DNA of 64,000 nucleotides from Mobula hypostoma (GCF_963921235.1 NC_086108.1:67954001-68018000), one strand, 5' to 3'; positions 1,013 through 54,760 are shown, numbered from the stretch's first letter. Translations and numbers: made by a program. Notes: generated by a model from the letters alone, not told the origin.

Positions 1013-1751
1013 TGAGTGTCTTACTACCAGTTACTAAATAACACACACATTTTAAAACATTTGTATTTGTATTCTCCAGTACCATTTTATGGCACTAAGT
1101 TTGACCTAATGCTGTCAAAAGCAGTGCAATCTTTACCAATTCTGAAGGCTCTAGAAATGATATTTAAACGGTCAGTGATACCACTATCCAGACTGCTGCA
1201 TACCGCTCTACAAACTCAGCTTAAGCTGCACACTGTTCTTACTGAAAGCTCATCTTTCTCAACATGATCAAACTCTTTGGTACAAATAAAATTGCCCTAT
1301 TCACCTTATTTCCAACCCTCCACTTCAAAGATGACATGTCAGAAACATTATCCAGAAACATACGTGGACAATGATGCATTTAAATGCTCAGCTCTCAACA
1401 CTTCATCTAGTCAGTCTTCACAAGGTGTGTTACCATCCTTGCAAAGCAATGTCCTTGCAGCCTATGCTGCTGGAAAGTAGTTCTCATTCATACCTTCAAC
1501 TTAATAAATTCTCAAATACAGTTTTATCCACATGTCTGCAGTTTGCACATGATTAAATTCAAGGTCATCCTCAATAACAACTTCCATGCCTGCACTCATT
1601 ACAACGTAGCTGCTCGCTGCTACATCAGGGAGATCATTGAAGTTCTTCAAGACAAAACTTGATCGACTTCATTGTCCCCATAGGAGCAGACAGAAAGACC
1701 AAGGGTATTTGTGTAGCCAGTCATAGATTACACTCTTGTAGCCAACATCAA

Positions 1752-1790
1752 TTACATTACTTACTTACATTACTTACATTACTTACATTA
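1752..1790. repeat. Short tandem repeat, ~9-bp unit TTACATTAC
   Basis: attacattacttacttacattacttacattacttacatta read directly. Confidence 0.85.
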
Positions 1791-3704
1791 GAACATATTC
1801 AGTAATTGAAAAGAATTACACTGTCTCAATTTGTACTTGGTGCTGAAGCAACTAAGGACCATTGCACAACATAGTTCTGCAAAAGCTGGTAGCTCACATT
1901 ATTCATCATTCTTGCTTAGCCAGGTGCAGCTGCTTCACTAAAAATTAGATCTCAGTGTCTACACCGCTCTGCCAATGCTCTCCAGTATTCAGCAGCAAGA
2001 TTGCCCGTCTTTTACAGGCCTGCTATCTGCTGCCAAATTTGACCATCAGATAATCTCAACCACTGTCTATCAACATCCAGCAAGGGAAGACTGCGCTGTG
2101 ATGAGATATTTGATCCTGAAAAGATTCATGATATCTAGTCCTCGCTGCACATTCATTCTTAAACACCCACAGGGTCACTTAAAACATTACATTATTACAG
2201 GGGTAGTCTGCAATTTTTACCGCGTAAACAGGTTGCAACAAATAAACATTGTCCATGTTTATTTAATGAATTAAATTGGATTCAAACTATTTGCATCATA
2301 AACAGCAAGCTGAAATTCCCAAATTAGTTATCAAATTGTTACAATGAAAACTAACTTGGAGATGGAAATTTAATTCAATAAGTTCAGCTGTCGTCCTTTT
2401 GAAGACTTACAAAAATATCCCAACTGCATCTGGATTTAATCCCACTGATGGCTCATGCAGGAAGTCCTTCTGAAAACCATTTACAAACAAGTCTCACCAC
2501 ATGGCTGAGATCAAGTTGACCAATAGATATATGATATCATAACAATAAAAATAGCAGAACTGCTTAGTAAGACATAAGACCACTTAATAATTTCCTCCTA
2601 AACCAACAGATTACTTCTGCACTTGCTTATGAAATACTCTCTAATGGTGACATTTGAAATTGCAGCTGGTCCTTTAAAATTAGAGCTCATTTGGCACATC
2701 AACCAGAACATTTACAGATCAAACAAATTTGACAACCACACTGAGATGTTACTGTTTCCATTAGACTTTTGTGAAAGAAACACTGGAACCTTTTTTCAAC
2801 TAGTTATCTGTCTCTACTTATCTGAGCTTCTTAAATATTGACTGTTGAACAATGGCCATACAGCAGTTCAAACAGCAAGGCGTGAAGCACAGAATGCCCT
2901 TCATGTGTTTGGCACCCCTAAGACCATAAGACATAGGAACAGAATTATGCCATTTAACCCATCAAATCTGCTCCACCATACATTCATGGCTGATCCTTTT
3001 TTCTCCTCCTCAACCTTATTCAAGATGGCTTCATATTTTCAAAGGCACCTCAGATCACTGGCAGCTGGCTCTCCTTTTGAGTATAAGCTCATCATGGTGT
3101 CTCTGTATCTATGTAGTTATTTCTGAGAAAACTGCCTCTTTGTTAGTCATCATTATAAGTCTTTGGATGACATTAAATCATCATACCATTAGGGAGTCAG
3201 ACAGCAGCAACCTGCCACTAGCATTGCTGATTGATCATTGATGCTTGACTCCACAGAATCAACTGGGTAGCTGCATATGGATGGATGACATGGCATTCTA
3301 AATTGTCCTTCTACTGCTTTATCCACTAATGGAAAGTATGAAGGTTACCTAAGGATATCCATAATACAAGAATGATGCTTGGTGCTCATGCATCTTGTGA
3401 TATATATGATGCAAGTTGCAGTTACTTACATTAGACTTCACCAGAGACAGTGCAATACTGGACCTCCTAATAAAGAATGGAATGGGGCAGGTGACTGAAG
3501 TGAGTGTAGAGGACCACTTTGGATCTAGAGATGTTAATTCCAGAAGTTCCAAGATAATTATGAAGAAAGATAGGTCTGGTCATCAGGTTTAAATAGCATC
3601 AACAGGAATCTGGAGGGCACAGATGGGGATAGGTTGTTTTGTTTCAAAGAGATGCTTGGTAAGTGGAAGGCCTTCAAAAGTATAAAATATTCAGAGTATT
3701 GAAT

Positions 3705-4083
3705 CTGTATGTTCACCTCTCTGCCCCTCTATTAGGGAGAGAGAAAGCCTATCATATGTCAAATTGTGAGGTGAATGATTAGTTTTGGTTGAACTGCAGA
3801 TCATGGTCTTTCTTGGGGGCTTTGCTATTGCTTGCTTAGAGGGTGGAGGGTGCCAATGCTTTTGGCCAATGTAAGTGGGGGAGGGGGAAGGGCCGATGCT
3901 TTGCTGCTGCTTGTACATGGGAGGGAGGAGTGGGGGGGGGCTCTGGGGTTCTAACAGTTTTACTGTCACATTATTTGGGGCACTCCAGTTTTCATGGATG
4001 TCTGCAAAGGACAAGAATTTCATGTTGTATGCTGGGTACATCTCTATATTAAATGGAACTATTGAAACTACTGAACTATTGAA
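3705..4083 (+). mobile_element. Non-autonomous retroelement 3' part (same family as 16889-19811 and 41367-41650)
   Basis: Shared TATTAGGGAGAGAGA..., GGGGTTCTAAC, GGGGCACTC, and a tail ending in repeated CTATTGAA. Confidence 0.75.
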
Positions 4084-5629
4084 TAAAAGGCAAAGCTCAC
4101 AGGTTTAAGTAACCTTTAGTATCAAAGATTATTGAAGCCCTGCTAAAGAAAAAGAAGGAAGCACATATCAGGTACTGGCAGTTATGATCAAATAAGGTAC
4201 TTGAGAAGTATGAGAAATGCAAGAGAACAATTAAGAGAGAAATCAAGAGGGCTAAAATAGGCAGCTGTGGCAGACAAGGTAAAAGAGAATCCCAAGGGAT
4301 TCTCTATCTATATTAAGAACTGAAGAATGGCAAGGAACAAAATTGGTCCTCTTAAAAATCTGCGTGGACGTCTATGAATGGAGCCAAAAGAGATGGGGGA
4401 GATCTTAAATGGAATTTTTGCATCTGTATTTACTCAGGAGACAGACACAGAAACTATAAACCTCTGTAACAACAAGGGCATGGACTGTATCCAGATTATA
4501 GAAGAGGAGGTACTTGCTGTCTTGAGGTGAATTATGGTGGATAAATTCCGAGGGCCTGACAAGGAGTTCTCTCAGACCTTGGAGGAGGCTAGTGTAGAAA
4601 TTGCTGAGATTTCTGGCAAAGATGTTTAAAATATCATTAATCACAGCTGAGGTGCAGGAGGACCAGAGGATACCCAATCTTGTTCTGTTGTTTAAGAAAG
4701 GTTCTAAGAATAAGATGAGAAATTATATGCCAGTGAACCTAATCTTGGATAAATTATGGGAAGGTATTCCAAGAGACCAGATATATTTGGATAGACAGGC
4801 CCTGATTAGGGATAGTCAACATGGCTTTAAGCATAGCGGGTCACATCCACCAGATCTTTTTCAAGGTTTTTCGAGGAAGTTACAAAAAAGGTTGATGAAG
4901 GAAAGGTGGTGGACGCTGTCTACATGGATTTTAGCAATGTCTTTGTCTAAGTCCCATATGGGAGGCTGTTCCAGAAAGTTGTGTTGCTTGACATTCAGGA
5001 TAAAGTAGTCAAATAGATTCAACATTGTCATAGCAGGAGAAGCCAAAGAGTGGTATTAGATGATTGTCTCTCTGACTCGAGACCAGTGACTAGAGATGTG
5101 TAGCAGGTATCGCTGCTAGATCCATTGTTGTTTATTATCTATATTAATAATTTATATTATAATGTGGTACAATGAATCAGCAAATTTGCCAATGACATCA
5201 AGTTTGGGGACATACCAGACAAGAAGGAAGGCTGTGAAAGCTTGCAAAGGAATCTGGACCAGCTTGGAAAATGGGCTAAGAAATGACAGATGAAATTTAA
5301 TGTGTAGAAATGTAAGCTTTTCACTTTGGGAGGACAATCCAGAGGAAGACTTATACAGTGAATGGTAAGGTATTAATGTGTGCAGTACAACAAAGGGATC
5401 TGAAAATACAAATACATAATTCGTTGAACGAGACAGCACAGATAGATAATGTTGTAAAGAGAGCTTTTGGCACATGAACCCTTACATGGTTGGGGCTGTG
5501 GATTTCAACTGTAGTAGTCCTAAATGGGAATATTTGATGATTCCCTTTGAAACTGTATGCAAAGAGTTGCTGCTTTCAGGCACCATCTTGGCGGAAGCAT
5601 CATGGAGAGCATTCTAATTGTCAGATACG

Positions 5630-5960
5630 GAGGGGCCACTGCATAGGATCAAAACAAGCTGCAGAAAGGTTCAAACTCAGCCAGCTATATCACAGGTACT
5701 AGTCCAGGATTGAGGACGTCTTCAAATGGCAATTTCTCAAAAAGATGGCATCCATCTTTAAGGACCCCCATCACCCAGAACATGCCTTCTTCTCAATGCT
5801 ATCATCAAAAAGGAGTACAGGAGCCTCAAGACACACACTCAACATTTTAGGAATAGTTTCTTCCCCTCTGCCATCATACTTCTGAATGGACAATGAACAG
5901 TACCTCACTATTTTTTCTTTATTTTGCCCTCTTTTTGCACTACTCATTTAATTTAATCTT

Positions 5961-6033
<73 letters not shown>

Positions 6034-6143
6034 TTCTTATTGTAAGTTATAGCTTTTTTAAAATTATGCATTGCACTGTACTGCTGCCGCAAAACAACAA
6101 TTCCACAACATATGCCAGTGATGTTAAACCTGATTCTGAATCT
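5630..6143 (+). mobile_element. Rex1/Babar-type LINE 3' fragment containing a (TG)n tract
   Basis: ASIFKDPHHPEHAFFSMLSSKRS...NSFFP-type C-terminus, and a tail ending AAACCTGATTCTGAATCT. Confidence 0.7.
5971..6027. repeat. (TG)n microsatellite flanked by (TA)n
   Basis: Direct reading. Confidence 0.98.
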
Positions 6144-6589
6144 CATTCATTGGCCTTCATAAATCAGGCATCCAGTACAGGAGTTGGGATGTTATGTTGA
6201 AGTTGTTTAAAACATTGGTAAAGCCAAATTTCAAGTATTTTGTGCAGTTCCGGCCACCTAGTTATAGGAAAGCATAAACAGAGTTCAGGGGAAACTGTAA
6301 GTGGATGCTACCAGGACACGAGGACATGATGGACAGAGATAGCTTAGATAGGCAAGGAATTTATTCCCTGGAATGCAGGACATTGAGGGGTGATCTTACA
6401 GAGGTATACAGAATTATGAGGGATATAGATAGGATGAATAAATGCAGGCTTTCTCCCCCTCAGGCTTGGTGAGACTAGAACTACAGGTCATATTTAACAG
6501 GAATCTGAGGGGGATCTTCTTCATTTGGAAATTGGAGGCAACTTCATGAAGTCCTACAGCCTTCGATAACCCTGTTACTTCAATTTCTG

Positions 6590-7305
6590 AGGCCAAAATG
6601 ACAGCATCCTGCAGGAGTGTGCCGAGCTCAGAGGGGATACCTAGCCAAGTACTAATGACCTATGCTGATCAACTGGCTGGAATATTCACTGAAATCATTA
6701 ACCTCTTGTTTTGGCAGTCTGAGGTACCAATCTGCTTCAAGCAGATTTCAATCATACTGGTGCCTAAGAAGAACATGGTAACCTGTCTCAGTGACTGTCC
6801 TCTAGTAGCACTAACATCTACTGTGATGAAGTGCTTTGAGAGGTTGGTGATGAAACAAATCAACTCCTGCCCGAGAAGCCACTTGGATCCACTCCAGTTT
6901 GCCTACCATCACAGCAGGTCAACAGCAGATGCCATATCATTGATTCTTCACTGAATGCTAGAACATCTGAGCAGTGAAGATGCAAACATCAGATTATTCT
7001 TCATTGTACACACCTTGCCATTCAATACTATCACCCCCTCAAAACTAATCAATAAGCTCTAAGACCCAGGACTCAATACCTCCTGGTGCAACTGGATCAT
7101 TGATTTCCTCACCTCCAGACCCCAGTTGGTTCAGACTGTCCAAAGCACCTCCTCTACAATCACCATCAGCGCAGGTGCTTTGCTCTCTGCTCTACTTGCT
7201 TTATACTTATAATTGTGAGGCTAAGCCCAACCCCAATCCCATGCTTTAGTTTGTTGATAATACTACAATCTTTGTTGAATCAAAGGTGGTGATGAATCAA
7301 CATAG
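6590..7305 (+). mobile_element. Rex1/Babar-type LINE reverse transcriptase fragment
   Basis: ORF 6598-6954: ADQLAGIFTEIINL..VPICFK..IILVPKK..VALTSTVMKCFERLV..LDPLQFAY, typical non-LTR RT of the Rex1/Babar-L2 group. Confidence 0.85.
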
Positions 7306-7307
7306 AG

Positions 7308-8755
7308 AAGATAAGACCATAAGATAGATGAGCAGAACTAAGCCATTTTACCCATTGAGTCTGCTTTGCCATTGCATCATGAAATGATCCATTTTACCTT
7401 TCAGCCCCAAAATCCTGTTTTTTCCCTGTATCCCTTCATGCCCTGACCTATCAAGAATCTATCAATCTCTGCCTTAAATATACCTAAGTACCTAGCCTCC
7501 ACTGCTGCCTGTGGCAAAGAATTCCACAGAGTCACCACTTTCTAGCTAAAGAAATTCCTCTTCATCTTCATTCTAAAAGGACACCCCTCTACTCTGAGGC
7601 TGTGTCTTCTGGTCCTAGACTCTCCTATCATAGAAAACATTCTAGCACATATACTCTATTGAGGCCATTCACCATTCAATAGGTTTCAATTAGGTCACCC
7701 CCTCTTCTTCTGAATTCTAGTGAATACACGCCCAGAGCCATCAAACTTTCTTCCTATGACATGCCGTCCAATCCTGGAGTCACTTTCCTGAGCCTCCTTT
7801 GAACCCTCTTCAGTGTCAGCACTTCCTCTCTAAGATAGGTGTCCCAAAACTGCTCACAATATTCCCAGTGAGGCTTCACCAGTGCTTTATGAAGTCTCAT
7901 CATTACATCCTTGCTTCTATATTCTAGTCCTCTTGAAATGAACGCCCACATCGCACGTGCCCATGTGCCCTCCTCACCACTGAATCAACCTGCAAATTAA
8001 CCTTCAGGGAAATCTGCACAAGAATGCCTAAGTCCTTTTGTGCCTCAGAATTTCTTTAATTTTCTCGCCATTCAGAAAATAGTCTGCCCTTTTATTTCTG
8101 CTACCAAAGTGCATGATCATACTCTTTCCAACATTGTATTCCATCTGCCATTTCTTTGCCCATTCTCCTAATCTGTCTAGGTCCTTCTATAGCCTCTCTA
8201 ATTCTTGAAAACTACCTGCCCCTCCACCAATCTTCGTATTGTTTGCAGACTTTGGAACAAAGCCATCAATTCCACTATCCAAATCACTGACATATAACAT
8301 AAAAAGAATCAGTACCAACATAGACCCCTGTGGAACACTATGTCATCAGCAGCCAACCAGAAAAGGCTCCCTTTATTCCCACTCTTTGTCTCCTGCCAAT
8401 CAGCCACTGCTTTATCCATGTTAGTATCTTTCCTGTAATACCATGGTCTCATAGCTTGTTAAGCAGCCTTATGTGTGGCACCTTGTCAAACACCTTCTGA
8501 AAAGCCATGTACACAACATCAACCAATTCTCCTTTGTCTATCCTGCTTATTTTATCAAAGGTTTCCAACAGATTTGTCAGGCAAGATTTTCCCTTGAGGC
8601 AACCGTGCTGACTACAGCCTATTTTATCACGTGGCTCCAGATCCATTTCAGAATCTAGTGATTCTTGAAAGATCACAATTTCTTCAGCCACCCTTCAAAA
8701 GCCTGGGTTTATACCATCTGGTCCAGGTGACGTATCTACCTTCAGACCTTTCAGT
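7308..8755 (-). mobile_element. CR1 LINE, RT plus 3' end
   Basis: SQHGCLKGKSCLTNLLE..VDVVYMAFQKVFDKVPH (8449-8691) and AFISRGLEYRSKDVMMRLHKALVKPH (7754-7951); tail at ~7310. Confidence 0.92.
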
Positions 8756-16065: not shown

Positions 16066-17671
16066 ACTTTTCCCCACTGCCATGCATTGTGCAAGTTACT
16101 TCAAGAATATCGTGATCCTGCTCAACCTAACCAAAAACCTATTAACCATTAACTTATTAATGGGAAGTGACAACACAATTATACTAGCATTGGAAGCGAG
16201 ATGAGTACACCAACTACAACAATAAAGGAACAGAATAAGGTGAACACTCGACCCATGCCTCTGTCAGCAGGACTTCAGGATCCACTAACTGAGGCCTAGT
16301 CATTCTCTGCCAGAATGTTCTATTTTACAAAGTGGCACAAAATTGAAAAATCCCACAAAGCCATAGATTGTAAGCAACAGGAAATGCTTGGTGATGTGGG
16401 AATTGCGGGGGAGGGGGGAATTGGTGGTAGCAATGGGGGAGGACAAATATATGTAGATAGAGCAGTTTGGTCATTATAGGTAAAACTATCATAGCATTGA
16501 TTGATTCTCCAATCTTCAACTATTTCTGAGCACTCAATTCAATTACCATGCTTTTTCTATGTAGCAAGCATAGCATTCAGCCCCATCAATATAGCTGAAT
16601 TTTACATTTAATCATCTTGTGCAGGATTGCTTTTTTTTGATTTTCAAGTTGACTAATAGTTAATTGAAAGACAGCATATTTCTGGCATGTATTGATTATA
16701 CTGTGAAAGTACTTGCAGTTTGTATGTTGTAATCTGAGAAACAAAGAGATATGCATTAATTCAGCAGTGACATTTCAGACCATAATATAACATAGTTTCA
16801 CTAAGCCTTAACAAATCTTAGTACTACAATGACTTGTCCATCAATAATATTGAATTTCTAACTTGAATTTTAAAAAATAATTTAATATGGAGGCACCGCA
16901 AAGTCAAGATGGCGCTGAACAGCGACTCTTTTGCTTGCATCTTCGGAAACAGCACTGTTTCTATCTTTGATAATTTTCTCCCCCTTTTCAAGCTTCTTTT
17001 GAAGACTCTGACCTGGAGTTACATTCTGACTTTGGTTCTTTGCGGGAATGGGACCCGCTGTCAGGGTCTCACGACTGGCCGCTTTTTGATATACCAAGGA
17101 CGGGGCCTGGAAGGCAAAATCAGGGCTCCGGATTTTCACAGCTCTGGAGGCGTGCTGATTCTAGACTGGTGCCCCTGACTGAAGTGTCACAGGAAAACAC
17201 GGAACATCGGGAGCAACGGGTTAGCTGCTGGGGCTCATGTGTCCAGAGAGCTCGGGAAAAGTGACACAACAGACTTCTAACATCGTAAATCAGTGAGTTG
17301 TTTGTTATGTCTCCCCTCTCGCTGTGAAATGGGGTCACCTCTTTTTCCCTTATTAGGGAAAGAGAGAGCCTGTGGTATATCGAATTACTGGGTGAACGTG
17401 TAGTTTTTGGGGTATTGCAAGCCTGTGTCTTTATTGATGCTTTGCTGCAGGCTTGAGTGCTTGGTGGACGGTGCTGTTGCTTTTTTGCTGGTGGGGGCAG
17501 GGGGGAGTGGTCATTGCCTTGCTGCTGCTTATGCATGGGAGGGGGAGCTGGGGGGACCTAGGGGTTCTAACGTTTAACTGTCATACATCCTTTGGGGCAC
17601 TCCTCTGTTTTTCTGGATGTTTATGAAGAAAAGGAATTTTAGGATATACAGTTGAAGTCAGAAGTTTACAT

Positions 17672-18177
17672 TGAATTGAACTGAATGATCTTTATTGTCA
17701 TTATACATAGGTACAATGAAACTCTGTTTGGCTTCCTCTCAGGCAATTAAATAAAGCAGTAAATAAAAACAAGACAGTAATAGAAAAACAGTATTAAATA
17801 GATAAATAGCAGAAAATAAGTTGCAGCATCACCGGAATATCACAGTAATGCACAAAGTGCCGTTAGTGCAAGTATTTGAGTCCTTGTGTGTTCATGTGTG
17901 TGCTCACAGTTCCAGTCATTGTTCTGTGGGAGTGGTGTGATGGAGGCCACAGCTCTGGGATAGAAGCTGTTCCTCAGTCTATTTGTTCTGGATTTTAGTG
18001 TCCTGAACCTTTTGCTGGACGGCAGCGGGTCAAACAGGGAGTGGCCGGGGTGTGTGGTGTCTCCGATTATGCTGATTGCTTTCCTCTTGAGTCTGCTGGA
18101 ATAGATGGTGCCCAGTCCAGGGAGCTCCATCCTGACAATTCACTGGGCCGCCTTCACCACGTGATGCAGGTCTTGTC
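17672..18177 (-). mobile_element. Rex1/Babar-type LINE 3' fragment inserted in the Tc1 outer DR
   Basis: ORF 17840-18130 ELPGLGTIYSSRLKRKAISIIGDTTHPGHSLFDPLPSSKRFRTLKSRTNRLRNSFYPRAV; tail (TTCAA/TTCAG)n at 17672-17686. Confidence 0.88.
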
Positions 18178-18370
18178 GCCAAATACACTAAAACTCAGTT
18201 TTTCACAATTCCTGATATTTAATCCTAGAAAACATTCCCTGTCTTAGGTCAGTTAGGATCACTACTTTATTTTAAGAATGTGAAATGTCAGAATAATAAT
18301 AGAATGATTTATTTCAGCTTTTATTTCTTTCATCACTTTCCCAGCGTGTCAGAAGTTTACATACACTTTG

Positions 18371-19313
18371 TTAGTATCTGGTAGAATTGCTTTTAAATTA
18401 TTTAACTTGGGTCAACTGTTTGAGGTAGCCTCCCACAAGCTTCTCACAATAAGTTGCTGGAATTTTGTTCCATTCCTCCAGACAGAACTGGTGTAACTAA
18501 GTCAGAATTGTAGGCCTCCTTGCTCGCTTTTTCAGTTCTGCCCACAGGCCAGGGCTTTGTGATGGCCACTCCAATACTTCGATTTTGTTGTCCTTAAGCA
18601 ATTTTGCTACAACTTTCGAGGTATACTTGGGGTCATTGTCCATTTGGAAGACCCATTTGCGACCGAGCTTTAACTTCCTGGCTGATGTCCTGAGATGTTG
18701 CTTCAATATATCTAGATAATTTTCCTTCCTCTTGATGCCATCTATTTTGTGAAGTGCACGAGTCCCTCCTGCAGCAAAGCACCCCCACAACATGATGCTG
18801 CCACCCCCATGCTTCATGGTTGGGATGGTGTTCTTCAGCTTGCAAGCCTCACCCTTTTTCCTCCAAACATAACGAAGGTCATTATGGCCAAACAGTTCAA
18901 TTTTTGTTTCATCAGACCAGAGGACACTTCTCTAAAAAGTAAGATCTTTGTCCCCATGTGCACTTGCAAACTGTAGTCTGGCTTTTTTATGGCAGTTTTG
19001 GAGCAGTGGCTTCTTCCTTGCTGAGCAGCCTTTCAGGTTATGTCGATATAGGACTCGTTTTACTGTGGATATAGATATTTGTCTGCCTGTTTCCTCCAGC
19101 ATCTTCACAAGGTCCTTTGCTGTTGTTCTGGGATTGATTTGCACTTATTGCGCCAAAGTACGTTCATCTCTAGGAGACAGAATGCGTCTCCTTCCTGAGC
19201 GGTATGACAGCTGCGTGGTCCCATGGTGTTTATACTTGCGTATTATTGATTGTACAGATGAACGTGGTACCTTCAGGCATTTGGAAATTGCTTCCAAGGA
19301 TGAACCAGACTTG
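18371..19313 (-). pseudogene. Tc1/Sleeping Beauty-like DD34E transposase, inactivated
   Basis: KSGSSLEAISKCLKVPRSSVQ..GRRRILSPRDER, INPRTTAKDL, ARKKPLL, WSDETKIELFG, KHGGGSIMLWGCF, FQMDNDPKYTS, WPSQSP. In-frame stops; N-terminus missing; DLNPIEN (catalytic E) deleted. Confidence 0.95.
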
Positions 19314-19322
19314 ACATCATTT

Positions 19323-19530
19323 TCTGACCTCAATCTGATAAAAAAAATTGTGGGCAGAACTGAAAAAGCATGTGCGAGCTAGGAGGCCTACAAACCTGAC
19401 TCAGTTGCAGCAGTTTTGTCTGGAGGAATGGAACAAAATTCCAGCAACTTACTGTGAGAAGCTTATGGAAGGCTATCCAAAACATTTGACCCAAGTTAAA
19501 CAACTTAAAGGCAATGCTACCAAATACTAA
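19323..19530 (+). pseudogene. Inverted second copy of the transposase C-terminus
   Basis: DLNLI..WAELKKHVRARRPTNLTQLQQFCLEEWNKIPATYCEKLMEGYPKHLTQVKQLKGNATKY*, followed by a right IR/DR. Confidence 0.93.
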
Positions 19531-22500
19531 CAAAGTGTATGTAAACTTCTGACCCACTGGGAAAGTGATGAAAGAAATAAAAGCTGAAATAAATCATTCT
19601 CTCTACTATTATTCTGACATTTCACATTCTTAAAATAAAGTAGTGATCCTAACTGACCTAAGACAGGGAATGTTTTCTAGGATTAAATGTCAGGAATTGT
19701 GAAAAACTGAGTTTAAACGTATTTGGCTAAGGTGTATGTAAACTTCTGACTTCAACTGTATATTGTACACATTTCTCTAACATAAAATGTACCTATTGAA
19801 ACCTATTGAAATTACCGGTAACATGAAGTTGAATCCAATCATTGTGTATTTTATCAATGGAAACATTAATCTCATTTTAAACTAATTTTTCTTTCATGCA
19901 GAATAAGGAGCAAATTAATATAAGCATAGCATAGAACATCAAAGATGCCCACAGGTATCTGAAGAAACCTTTGCCATTACCTAATTAATCTTGTCATTAT
20001 TAGACGTACAGTATGTTCAAATTATTACTTTCCGTAGTTAAATTCAGATTAGTTTGTTCAGCAACAGAAAATAATGCAGGAAGATTGTTGCTTCCCTACT
20101 ACACGTTTCAGTACACACATACAGTACCTATCAATACTCAGCTTTCTAAAGTGAATCATGGAACTACTCTGACTGAATCCCATGTTTACAACTTTACCAA
20201 TTTTCATTTATCTTCCATTTGTGCTGGTGAATTCAATTTCTTCCTCGGATGGAGACTCACACAAATTGTTTTCTACATGAATATATCATTACCAGCCATA
20301 GACAATAGAAGTTCCTATATATATTTTTTACAAATGCTGAGAAGACTCAAACCATGCTGATAAAAGGGCAAATGCAGCACACTTAAATGTTGTTTACAAA
20401 TGAAAAGTTAAAGTAATAGGAATTCTTCAACAGAGGTTTACTTAATAAAACATCACACACGGTCTGTAAAACACAGCACATAATTTTACAAATGCTAGAA
20501 TTCTACCATTATCTCAAAGACTACACTTACAAATTAGGGGAGCACCTTAATGATCTAATGGGACTTTCAGGAAAAAAAATAAATGAGTGATATACGGCTT
20601 TAATTTTCTGAAGAGAGTTATTAAGGTAGTTCAAATACCATATTTACTATTTTAGGGAAGGCAGAACATGCGCTGTGCATAGAATCAGAATTAGAATGAA
20701 CACCTCGAATAGTCCTCAAAGAGTTTGCTGGCAGACAATTAAAGACCTCAAAACATTTGGAAACATTTTTATTTCACCAGAAGCAGTGTCTATATTCATA
20801 AAAATCTGGATCCTCAAAATCACTGCAGAATGTTATCAAATTGCCTCAATTATCCCTGTAACTGGCTTTACAACAATTCTTTATACTTCCAAACAGCTCC
20901 CCATCATACTTAATAAGTATCAGTTAAACCTTAAATAAGGACAGTGGACGTTCTGTAGAATTTACAAAACAAAAACATAAATTATTTCCTTTCAAATTCT
21001 TTGTACCTCGAAGATACAGTTTGGAAAGATGTCATATGGGTATCATATGCACTCATAAGCAATAAGGAAATTGTAAAAAATGGAGAAAAATTAAGGTGGG
21101 AGATAAAATGAGAGTCTGAAGATTCTCTGGGGAGTCAAAACAGCATACAGAAACCTTCCACTGATTTTCAAATAATGATATTGCATCTATATTTCCATAT
21201 TATCCTCAGGTGCAGTCATTTGATCATAGTGGACACAACCGCCCTTCCCTCCTTTACAGTTAAATCTCAATAAGTCCTGTTTTCTTCAGAAATGACCAAT
21301 ATTACTTTGGGCTCCTGTTTGTCTGCAGGCTTCAGTCTGATTGGAATTTAACTTATTGGTGCCTGAAGCTACACATAACATTCTCGGATAGGGTTATGCC
21401 TGATAAATGCCTGATAAGTATCTAGCATGTAGGCAAGCAATTCACATTGGTGGTAGCACAAACCAGAACAAAGGAAAAGTAAGCATGTTTTAAAGGAAAG
21501 GAAAATAGGTAGGTATATAAACAGGTTGTCAATTTGTTCTCACAAAAGAGACTTTCTGATATTCTGATATTTTTCCAGATAAACGGACGATACCTTCCGG
21601 CAGTCTGTAACAGTTCATTCTTTCCTGGTCTGTTCTTATAGCTTTAATGAAGCTCAGTAAAACTGCTCCAAGCCTTCGTTTAATATGAGATGTTGCAGGA
21701 AATCACGTTTCACCTTACTTTAATACAGCACTTTCAACGTACTAAAAAATCATGTCTTATTCTTATGTAAAACTTGACACTATTCTACATATTAATCAAA
21801 CTGGCTAAAAAGTAAGCGATAGGAAAATATCATGTCGGTGAGGTCATGGGAGGGAATTACAAAGATAAGGCCCTGGAAGTTGAAGGAACTTCAGTTGATT
21901 CTGCAGTGAATAAAATTAAGGATGTTCAAGAGGCCGAAATCAGGAGAACAAACATATATTGAATGTTTGTAGAGATGGATTTGATTATAAAAAAACAATG
22001 GCCAAGTTCATGGAGAGACTTGAAAATTAGAATGAACATAGGTCAGCAGTATAAAGGGTAAATAGGACATCAAAACAAAGGATGAATTCAAGTATACTGT
22101 GAATAGATTAAAATAAACTGGCTGTCAAGACATAACAAAATATAGATGAAGCTCAAAGCAGATAGATTAAAGAATGAGAAGAGCTGGGTGGTGTTTTTGA
22201 AGCTTAAGGAGGCAATGTGTAGATTATTAGTTGTGACTAAGACACCAATGCTATTCAGCTTCAGACATCTGCCAGAGAGAGTGGAGAGTGATGGAATCAA
22301 TAGCTGAGTCACAAGGTTTCAACCTTTCCAACACATAGTAGGAAGAAATTTCTGCTTGTTAGATAAGCACTCTAAAATTTAGAGACAGTGAAGAGCTTGA
22401 GATAAGTGGATGAATGTTGCAAGTGGCAAATGAAGCACTAAAATAACAATCATTCAAAAGTGCTAACATGGATTTAAAAAAAACTAAATCAGATCACAGA

Positions 22501-44400: not shown

Positions 44401-44460
44401 GACATGTCAGAATGGGAATGGGATGTGGGACATGTCAGAATGGGAATGGGATGTGGGACA
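44401..44460. repeat. Perfect 28-bp tandem duplication at the PLE inversion junction
   Basis: GACATGTCAGAATGGGAATGGGATGTGG x2 plus GACA. Confidence 0.95.
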
Positions 44461-48430: not shown

Positions 48431-50254
48431 GAAGTTTTCATCAGTCTCTGTAGAGAGTCAGCAAACATGGGACTTAGCAAAAGAACTCACACCTTTCAAA
48501 TTCTAGTATAAGTGACTGTGACAAGTAGCCCTTACTGTCAGTCAAATCAGAAGACAGGATAATGGGGGTAAAAGCCATTAAGAAATTTGCGATTTACACA
48601 GAAATTACACCCAAATTATGTTAACATTCAATTCAACTTCAGTTAAAAGTTCAGTGTCTGCTCTAGAAGTATGAACATGCATGGATTTAAAACTGCAGTC
48701 AATACTAAATGCACTGTAAGTTAGTAGTCGCATATTGTATTCTACTTCAGATGTCAATAAATCCAAATTTTAGAAAGTTTGGTGCAGAAGCGTCACATTT
48801 AGCTCAAGTTACACAGAACAAATTATTACCTTTTCATTCAAAATTCAGTCTGAGAAAAGACTATTATCTCAATTCTCTACAATTATGGTAAATAATGGGA
48901 AAATTAATTGGACCAATTACAAAGCAGATTTTCCCATTATTTACCAATCTGTGGGGCACTGCTGTAGGTTTCACTATTTAGTCTTAACCATCAATTGTAG
49001 ATACAGTGCAGTACTTTGGCCTCAATAACTATTGGGTAGCATGTTAACATTTAGTACTGACATCCTCAGTTGTTAAAATTATAAGAGCAGCCAGTTGTCG
49101 CATTGCCCTCATTTCATTTGCTTTCTCCATTTACAGAAGGTGGGATTCTCTTCGAAGTGACCATTCTATGCTAATTATGGCTTATAATTAGTTGCATTGC
49201 TAACTTACAATGATGACAGAAGTGCCACCCCCTCCTCTGTCAGTTGATAACTGAAAACTACAATCCTGATACACAATAATGCAAAAAATGTTTTAAAGAC
49301 AAAACTAACATGAAAGCAAGGTGAAAAAAGGTCTCCCTAATTTTCCAAAGTACCATCTGCTGAGTGTATTGCAATCCTTTTCTCAATGATTTCAATGGAA
49401 AAAGGAAAGGTATAGCATGCCACAGGTAGTTACCAATGATAAGTGTGAACTTACACTGTGAGTGTTGGGGATTCTGCTTCACCCGCTGTGACGTATTCCG
49501 TGATGTTTTGATAGGTATGATGTGTGCATATTTCTTCTTAGGTTTTTGACCATCATTATAGCTGTGCTCATGGTGTCAGAATATCCACAGAATGTGTCTG
49601 AAACATTAGCGTCGATTTTTGTGTTGCCTGCCTGAGGAAATTCAGCAAGCTACCAAATAAATTCTCCTTCGAGACTCAGCAATATATAAATGGAAACTGG
49701 TTACGCTCTGCTTTATCTGTGTAGATTGGGTTATGTTGATAACAACAGGGCTAACTTTCGATTTTAATTAGAATTCTGAGGGCGAAAGAGGCAGAAGAAG
49801 CAGGCACAAAGAAACTAAGTTTTTCAGTATCCGAGACACAGGCAATGAAAGCTGAAAGAGAACTCCCCAAAGCTCTACAAATCCACTTTCTCCAAATTAT
49901 TCCCAAGATCTTTAAACTAGTGCTAGAAATGAACGGGAAGCTGGGTCTTCTCTTTATGGAAACAATTACAATGTTCCCATTAAGCTGTTTTAAGTAGTAC
50001 TCCAATTAGTAATAAAGACAATAGCAAGTCTTCACCATGATCACTCCCAGTTGTTTAAGGTCAGCAATCCCGCTGTATCATTATAGTGCCCTCTGGGATT
50101 ATAGAACATGCAGAATTGTCCTCTTTCATCTCTAAAACTTTCTCCTTCTGTTCAGCCTACACACTGTTGGCCTCTTGGACTCTCCCCAGAATCAATACCT
50201 TTCACCACATTTCCTTCCATAATGTCAATTCCACCACAACTGTGATATCTGGAT

Positions 50255-54208: not shown

Positions 54209-54760
54209 TGTAACCCTCAGTTTGACTAGCAGCTTAGTCTCAGGGAAGGCAGCCCCCTGCCCAGCCAAACTTAAATCTTGTTTGAGTGGATGCTGCATGA
54301 TGTGTTCCCCTGTTACAAATCAGTACCATGAAATAACAAACAGTGCACAATATGCAATTAAAAGATTGAGCTTTATAATTCTTAATTTGACTATACGGTT
54401 AGTAAAGAAACAAAAAAAGAAAAGGGCCCATTCTCATGAAAGTCTAATGCGCAACATTGGAGCTCAAGGTTCCATCCATTAGTTCCCCGTCGCCCTCCTC
54501 CGAGTGTAGCCAACCCTCGGACCCTCGCTCCAAGTCCACCCTGTCTGGCAGTCTAACAACTCTCTCCATTCGCATCTTCTCTCTTCATCTCTCCCTGACA
54601 AAGAACTGCGAAATCCCTGCTTCCAGACCCACAAGAAAGAAAAACATGCCTCTTATTGGCTAGCATATATTCCAAAGCCCCCATTATCTCTAGTCATAAT
54701 CCAACATTGCTGTTACAGAGAAACCATTACCTTAGCAGTGAAATCTTACCGCGCGTTACA
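54209..54760 (-). mobile_element. Solo LTR of the Gypsy family at 58448-64000
   Basis: TGTAA...TTACA termini. Reverse complement matches 58448-59018 (e.g. TTATGACTAGAGATAA, CTGAGGGTTACA). Confidence 0.92.

Follow-up and report, generated by a model that had tools for sequence, protein, structure and literature searches.

A decayed SB-family transposon with right ends at both termini, probably descended from an amplified right/right progenitor

The Sleeping Beauty (SB) transposon is a working gene-therapy vector, and in the model of its assembly the left end is special: it bears the half-DR enhancer, and the first binding event is drawn at the left inner DR. The window analysed here, a 64-kb stretch of DNA, harbours an element of this family with what appear to be right ends at both termini, raising the question of how such an element arose and whether it could have multiplied. 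We conclude, with considerable confidence, that it is a decayed copy of a non-autonomous SB-family Tc1 derivative with a right IR/DR at each end, and that its progenitor likely multiplied by cut-and-paste using the transposase of intact family members.

The element spans positions 17649-19758 and is flanked by copies of TA at 17647-17648 and 19759-19760. A sequence-only reading had previously delimited it as 18178-19758; the right boundary of that span stands, while the left boundary had to be moved outwards to 17649, since the outermost 23 bp match the right terminus exactly. References for its dissection came from a metagenome scan that gave 54 loci; 56 loci were fetched, three of which (L003, L034 and L004) were close enough to use. 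L003 and L034, each complete at 1,639 bp, share 91-93% DNA identity with the window element; the 340-aa protein encoded by L003 is intact and matches SB100X at E 5.6e-153. The parts of the locus are as follows.

17335-17648, plus strand: older host repeat, part to the left of the insertion; 70-73% identity to the copies at 3713-4020 and 41624-41414
17647-17648, no strand: duplicated TA, left copy; the empty target reads ATATATAT
17649-17671, minus strand: outer 23 bp of the native right IR/DR, forming the left terminus, with the outer DR now broken; 28 of 28 bases, including 5 of the flank, are complementary to the right terminus
17672-18177, minus strand: later insert of 506 bp that splits the outer DR and replaces 8 bp of it
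18178-18552, minus strand: native right end, with the rest of the right IR, the inner DR, the stop codon and the C-terminal codons
18553-19313, minus strand: transposase body, covering codons 20 to about 273, with two in-frame stops and with D153 and D244 present
19312-19326, minus strand: 15-bp relic of the 5'UTR, equal to element positions 261-275, with a 2-bp microhomology to the ORF and a 3-bp microhomology to the duplicated arm
19324-19758, plus strand: arm of 434-435 bp in place of the left IR/DR, an inverted copy of the right 434 bp from codon 273 through the terminus, with no half-DR
19759-19760, no strand: duplicated TA, right copy, completing the target duplication
19759-19810, plus strand: older host repeat, tail to the right of the insertion, placed by alignment to another copy of the repeat in the window and by the loose ends of contigs

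When the two flanks of the element were searched separately, they matched another copy of the host repeat in the window, at 41624-41414 and then at 41410-41370. Because this copy (41624-41370) aligns to both flanks in succession, the host repeat is continuous over one duplicated TA, just as had been proposed earlier from the sequence. A TA target duplication and an AT-repeat target (ATATATAT) are both present, as in SB-type IR/DR Tc1 elements, and an AT-repeat target is the reported preference of SB (PMC9777934). The host repeat itself is high-copy, and the flank beyond 19835 is single-copy.

The arms form an inverted pair (18178-18546 against 19349-19727) that is 90.5% identical over 379 columns, with 26 substitutions in the 369 ungapped columns; they differ by 7%, and each has indels of its own. 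Both carry the C-terminus of the transposase, the stop codon and the right IR/DR, which bears out the earlier claim of a right end at both termini. Four DR cores were found: the inner and outer DRs of the right arm are intact, with a spacing of 197 bp as in L003, and the later insert interrupts the outer DR on the left. The inner DR of the native right end, at about 18340-18370, has two substitutions. At its origin the element had four binding sites. The native right end has private deletions of 18, 6 and 4 bp, of which the 18-bp deletion takes out the catalytic glutamate E279.

The 506-bp insert may derive from the 3' end of a 5'-truncated LINE, which it resembles in having an ORF remnant, an AATAAA and a short-repeat tail. 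It has no Pfam match, only unnamed Atlas clusters under 0.9, and no second copy within the window. By breaking one outer DR it would immobilise the window copy and prevent its excision.

The window transposase matches the SB100X structure PDB 5CR4 at E 6.5e-77, contains HTH_SB, HTH_Tnp_Tc3_2 and DDE_3 domains, and belongs to the SB clade (PAI+RED, DD34E), with 85% identity to L003 over 152 columns; D153 and D244 are kept and E279 is deleted. Its minus-strand ORF begins at KSGSS, where the sequence-only reading had it break off, and this point corresponds to codon 20 of the intact relative. With no start codon, two stops and the 18- and 6-bp deletions, the window copy holds no intact 340-aa transposase. 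The ORF differs from that of L003 at 41 of 759 nt (5.4%), and the near equality of pN (0.053) and pS (0.057) indicates that it has decayed neutrally. The element thus resembles SB and the salmonid-type Tc1 relatives in its IR/DR ends, its TA duplication in an AT repeat and its DD34E-type transposase; unlike SB, it is without a left IR/DR, half-DR and start codon, has only 15 bp of 5'UTR, and carries the E279 deletion and two stops. We therefore class it as an SB derivative and not as canonical SB. A weak match to Gag_p30 in the frame of the right arm (E 0.0027), which falls under the cut-off, was taken as chance.

Comparison with the intact SB-type relatives revealed that an inverted 434-bp copy of the right end stands in for the left 260 bp. 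In the sense of the transposase, the order is positions 1206-1639 inverted, a 3-bp microhomology, positions 261-275, a 2-bp microhomology and, starting at position 445 (codon 20), the ORF through to the native right end; at the second junction 171 bp are deleted, including the start codon and the beginning of the transposase gene. The 15-bp relic is unlikely to be a chance match, because a match in the reference element exists for only 4 of the 61,787 15-mers taken from the rest of the window and because the relic lies in the expected order and orientation. Matches of 11-12 bp on the opposite strand, considered as a source for the junction filler, were set aside, the 15-bp match being longer and colinear. 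Beyond this relic the window contains no left-IR-specific sequence. The earlier proposal had been that an inverted duplication of about 400 bp replaced the left IR/DR, the 5'UTR and the N-terminus. An inverted arm does lie in place of the left IR/DR, but its size is 434-435 bp, and the duplication itself did not cause the loss of 5'UTR and N-terminus: it replaced 260 bp, a 15-bp relic of the 5'UTR was kept, and a separate junction deletes the next 171 bp. The left IR of L003 includes, at its position 154, a half-DR-like motif (two mismatches to the DR core) that is in neither arm of the window element, and which we take to be the published HDR enhancer. When rebuilt, the progenitor measures 1,639-1,640 bp, against 1,639 bp for the parent.

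We propose that this rearrangement arose once, probably through microhomology-driven template switching in gap repair, at the 3-bp and 2-bp microhomologies. A competing account of this step alone starts from two SB copies in head-to-head orientation: the 3-bp microhomology would mark a deletion between them that left only right ends outside, and a second deletion would have removed the 171 bp. Both microhomology junctions fit deletions equally well, and a deletion between neighbouring copies was proposed by Filee et al. for Rpmar49 and Rpmar17 (PMC4678618). However, two free deletions would rarely bring the rebuilt length to within 1 bp of the parent's (1,639 or 1,640 versus 1,639 bp), a coincidence that was noticed post hoc and measured against the reference element. 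On balance we lean modestly towards template switching, with the head-to-head origin a serious contender that we judge somewhat the less probable. An SB autointegration product was rejected, as the internal junctions have no terminal sequence or TA, only the 3-bp and 2-bp microhomologies; in published autointegration inversion products the transposon ends are joined to an internal TA with target duplication (PMC3952818).

By either route, the progenitor would have retained both outer and both inner DRs, with their native spacing, in an element of native length (about 1,639 bp). With four DRs so arranged, ordered synapsis would still have been possible without the enhancer. Since the promoter region and start codon were lost, no transposase would ever have been made by the right/right element, and we propose that the transposase of the intact relatives cut and pasted the progenitor.

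Evidence on whether the right/right form was amplified came from sequence collections and public sequencing runs. None of the 56 fetched loci has long inverted right arms, the junction itself having been searched in L003, L034 and L004 only. Viral contigs contained no relatives; in genome contigs the terminal pattern had 0 matches and the search returned 2 distant fragments only. Self-comparison of the 64-kb window found no second SB copy. The run search listed 24 runs, among which four of organism A, all from one sample, contained 0.75-0.79 of the words and three of organism B 0.43-0.47; shares of 0.10-0.11 in organisms C-J count as no evidence, save for run X6, in which contigs were aligned. 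For four of the 24 runs, contigs only were aligned to 19295-20194: X1 and X3 (organism A; one sample, maybe the window's source), X21 (organism B; an independent sample from another species) and X6 (organism C). The first bin, 19295-19324, consists of 20 bp of the ORF plus the junction.

Summed contig depth in this bin was 28,450 in X1, 44,139 in X3 and 44,324 in X21, compared with 17.4, 14 and 34.8 in the unique flank, so that in organisms A and B the junction lies at 1,270-3,150 times the depth of the unique flank. In the SB-rich control, X6, the mean depth was about 340,000 over the right arm and 38.5 over the junction; the ratio of junction to arm depth was therefore 0.0001, as against 0.22 (X1), 0.20 (X3) and 0.09 (X21). 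Summed contig depth is no copy number, and overlapping short contigs may overcount up to about 31-fold; bounds on the copies run from 41-102 to 1,274-3,153 for the first bin and from 10-31 to 323-946 for contigs crossing the arm junction. The family would thus number anything from tens to over a thousand copies, the depth giving no exact count.

Between 19336 and 19345 the depth falls in the three runs of organisms A and B (6,598 to 974, 15,056 to 1,806 and 31,603 to 6,315), whereas it rises in organism C (1,832 to 7,368), and contigs of A and B anchored on the junction side must therefore extend into the inverted arm. Most of that depth in A and B has a non-window base at 19336; the number of contigs with such a base (31, 33 and 28 in A and B, 58 in C) does not discriminate by itself. 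The arm junction is crossed by two of the listed contigs, X1 record 1, which shows 14 differences from the window copy in 149 bp, and X3 record 16, which shows 16 in 123 bp, and on account of these differences they represent other copies; both fall short of the bridging rule of 31 letters on each side, the aligned stretch having 29 bases to the left of the arm junction. Contigs overrunning an end of the stretch numbered 23 of 3,584, 34 of 4,135 and 23 of 4,222 in A and B (one of each being a flank contig), versus 0 of 66,041 in C.

Together, the depth signal and the two diverged contigs point to one breakpoint common to many copies, in numbers that they do not fix exactly. The right/right form is therefore very likely to be an amplified family and not a local accident. 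One of the two origins offered by the sequence-only reading, a natural right/right element mobilised in trans, gains support from this high repetition of the compound junction in contigs of the source species and a relative. The end-to-end right/right anatomy with its own TA duplication is seen for the window copy, other contigs being too short to reach flanks. Among the listed contigs, none ties the window junction to its unique flank.

The first bin would also count any copies with only the 171-bp deletion and a normal left end, and the amplified family could accordingly consist mainly of normal left/right elements with that deletion, the right/right form being a small sub-branch. Such elements would match 19295-19326; the share of first-bin depth shown to continue past the arm junction is 20%, 30% and 57% in the three runs of A and B, leaving 43-80% that is not shown to cross it. 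Yet at least 57% crosses in X21, no loose end lies behind 19326 among the 24 listed (631 more exist), and the drop at 19336 coincides with private changes of the window copy, where contigs would be clipped anyway. We consider a family dominated by such deletion-bearing elements unlikely.

Passive multiplication, in which segmental duplications or transport as cargo of the host repeat and not transposase acting on two right ends copied the junction, is less probable still. The host repeat is high-copy and the flanks of the other junction-bearing copies are not seen in the contigs, as this account would allow, but the termini of the window copy are exact, and it is flanked by a TA duplication of its own within an AT-repeat target. 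In addition, the flank beyond 19835 is single-copy, the host repeat is uninterrupted at the insertion point in 77-89 contigs per run (with loose ends before 19757), and right ends run into unrelated flanks (agreement 0.38), normal copies included. These observations leave passive copying very improbable.

The amplified right/right family also has to be set against events confined to the window locus. We scored changes in the arms against the majority letters of X1 over 369 columns, and found 9 differences in the duplicated arm and 19 in the native arm (p = 0.087, not significant). A single non-majority base, at a CpG, is common to the two arms, with 8 private to the duplicated and 18 to the native arm, so that the arms do carry independent mutations, as had been stated earlier. 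The other origin offered at that time was conversion in place after insertion, in which a normal element inserted and its left end was later overwritten by a copy of the right end, yielding a unique structure. As about 26 terminal bases are common to both ends of the element, exact termini and a TA pair are expected on this account too, and the duplicated arm does have the fewer changes (9 versus 19 of 369, short of significance). However, late conversion in place is disfavoured because mutations private to the locus would then be in both arms, which have only the one CpG base in common, and the junction stands at more than 1,000 times the flank depth in two species, with other, diverged junction contigs. 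Conversion in place is thus largely refuted, and we give it next to no credence. The arm sequences agree with a rearrangement that would be older than the window insertion.

The least credible reading is that the assembly artificially joined two SB copies. None of the listed contigs spans the junction, the arm and the unique flank together; against such an artefact, organism B, a different species sampled independently (X21), has contigs with the junction, the arms are 7% apart with their own indels, and the host repeat rejoins in register over one TA.

In the flank, organism B and the window disagree at 5 of 411 bases, less than the arm decay of 2.4-5.1%, which suggests that the family probably spread before the two species split. 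We therefore envisage a right/right form that spread ahead of the split between organisms A and B, and a window copy that would then have decayed neutrally and in which a later insert broke one of the outer DRs.

Among insect mariners, elements whose 5' part has given way to the 3' part are known; the literature searched yielded no such report for SB. In Rhodnius prolixus, the non-autonomous mariners Rpmar49 and Rpmar17 have an inverted 3' part in place of the 5' part (Filee et al. 2015, PMC4678618), and were amplified from one progenitor, Rpmar49 to 13 copies and the rearranged Rpmar17 to 227 (PMC4678618). The window element shares with them this replacement and its long TIRs with transposase sequence; unlike these mariners, which have simple single-site TIRs and are mostly under 1 kb, it is an IR/DR Tc1, a type with functionally unequal ends, at the full parental length of about 1.64 kb, in a vertebrate-type genome. 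It works like the Rpmar49-type lineages without being a member of them. The Drosophila mariner MITEs Dromar7, 11, 28 and 36 likewise have one end that is an inverted copy of the other, a single origin and amplification in trans (Wallau et al. 2014, PMC4161770). They resemble the window element in end replacement and long TIRs and differ from it in being short MITEs, all seven Drosophila lineages replacing the 3' by the 5' part (PMC4161770).

In SB itself, all four DRs are needed, and the half-DR acts as an enhancer that is not essential (PMC7827188). The non-equivalence of left and right IRs, with the HDR enhancer on the left, on which the sequence-only reading had relied, is backed by published work, one review nevertheless calling the half-DR 'not essential' (PMC7827188); a mobile right/right element is therefore not forbidden. 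A preference for one end is ascribed to SB, as it is to Mos1 and Mboumar-9 (PMC4505599). The engineered left/left donor pT3 is more active, a duplicated left end giving a two- to three-fold gain (PMC8151067). The right/right window element represents a natural mirror case of such left/left donors. Right/right SB donors reportedly transpose less well, a result attributed to Izsvak in 2002. IR/DR elements have been reported not to form very short derivatives (PMC5224488), and the full length kept by the window element fits this. Jia 2022 gives SB TIR lengths that reach 415 bp and reports SB proper from ray-finned fish and a single mollusc only (PMC9777934); those long TIRs could be right/right forms. 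No natural right/right SB family was found in the papers searched, the opening third of PMC6362248 included.

The right/right form thus likely spread on the enzyme of intact copies, even though it lacked the enhancer of the left end, which under laboratory conditions promotes transposition. The amplification in nature of a family with right ends at both termini would mean that left/right asymmetry is not needed for germ-line spread, and would offer natural material with which to study the benefit of the enhancer and possible compensation for its loss by element length or long arms. End replacement, which has been described for insect mariners, would also be extended to an IR/DR element and to a vertebrate-type genome. 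No rule is broken by this, the half-DR having already been called non-essential and the full length agreeing with the report that IR/DR elements form no very short derivatives (PMC5224488).

More speculatively, and in our view improbably, right/right elements may have become a major share of the SB family, as the junction/arm depth ratios of 0.09-0.22 might be read. With the transposase of this lineage, two right ends at native length would then have been at least as effective in transposition as the normal pair, the left-end enhancer being dispensable in nature, and 434-bp perfect arms with the 3' coding end of the transposase would also have made new copies into sources of hairpin RNA that helped to shut the family down. 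If this were true, the parent could have been not only out-competed but also silenced by a large share of right/right copies. Mu killer of maize is an inverted duplication of the 5' part of a transposon at a single locus. Like Mu killer, the inverted duplication of the window element could yield a long hairpin RNA matching the parent transcript, although here it is the 3' part that is duplicated. SB ends have been reported to drive convergent transcription and RNA interference (PMC3343047). Today the duplex of the two arms comprises 346 pairs, with a longest perfect run of 82 bp.

L003 is an SB-type relative recovered on a metagenome contig, and the element itself was later interrupted by an insert, the two features being:

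L003, 1613-3251: SB-type element, complete and with its 340-aa ORF intact, on a metagenome contig
Window, 17672-18177: insert interrupting the outer transposase-binding site of the right/right element

Across window 18553-19313, the distance from L003 was 5.4%, with pN approximately equal to pS, and over 375 columns the two arms shared 15 departures from L003. Together, these data indicate that the window element belongs to an SB lineage that is near L003 yet separate from it. Such a close-but-separate lineage would fit horizontal transfer. Among the 54 metagenome matches, many resemble animal host DNA.

When the right/right progenitor of the element at window 17649-19758 was reconstructed, its length differed from that of the parent by at most 1 bp; the longer arm adds 171 bp, equal to the 171 bp lost by deletion (a match spotted post hoc). 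The insert, which resembles a LINE 3' fragment, lacks a target duplication, and its target lost 8 bp.

In each of the public contig sets X1 and X3, one low-depth contig links window 19299-19300, on the junction side, to 19355-19356, in the arm, on opposite strands. These contigs may represent a nearly palindromic right/right copy of about 860 bp that is missing its entire interior.

Elsewhere, the window carries a 547-bp inverted pair (54209-54749 and 59018-58492; 78%), an imperfect 61-bp palindrome (48886-48946) and a perfect 28-bp tandem duplication (44401-44460).
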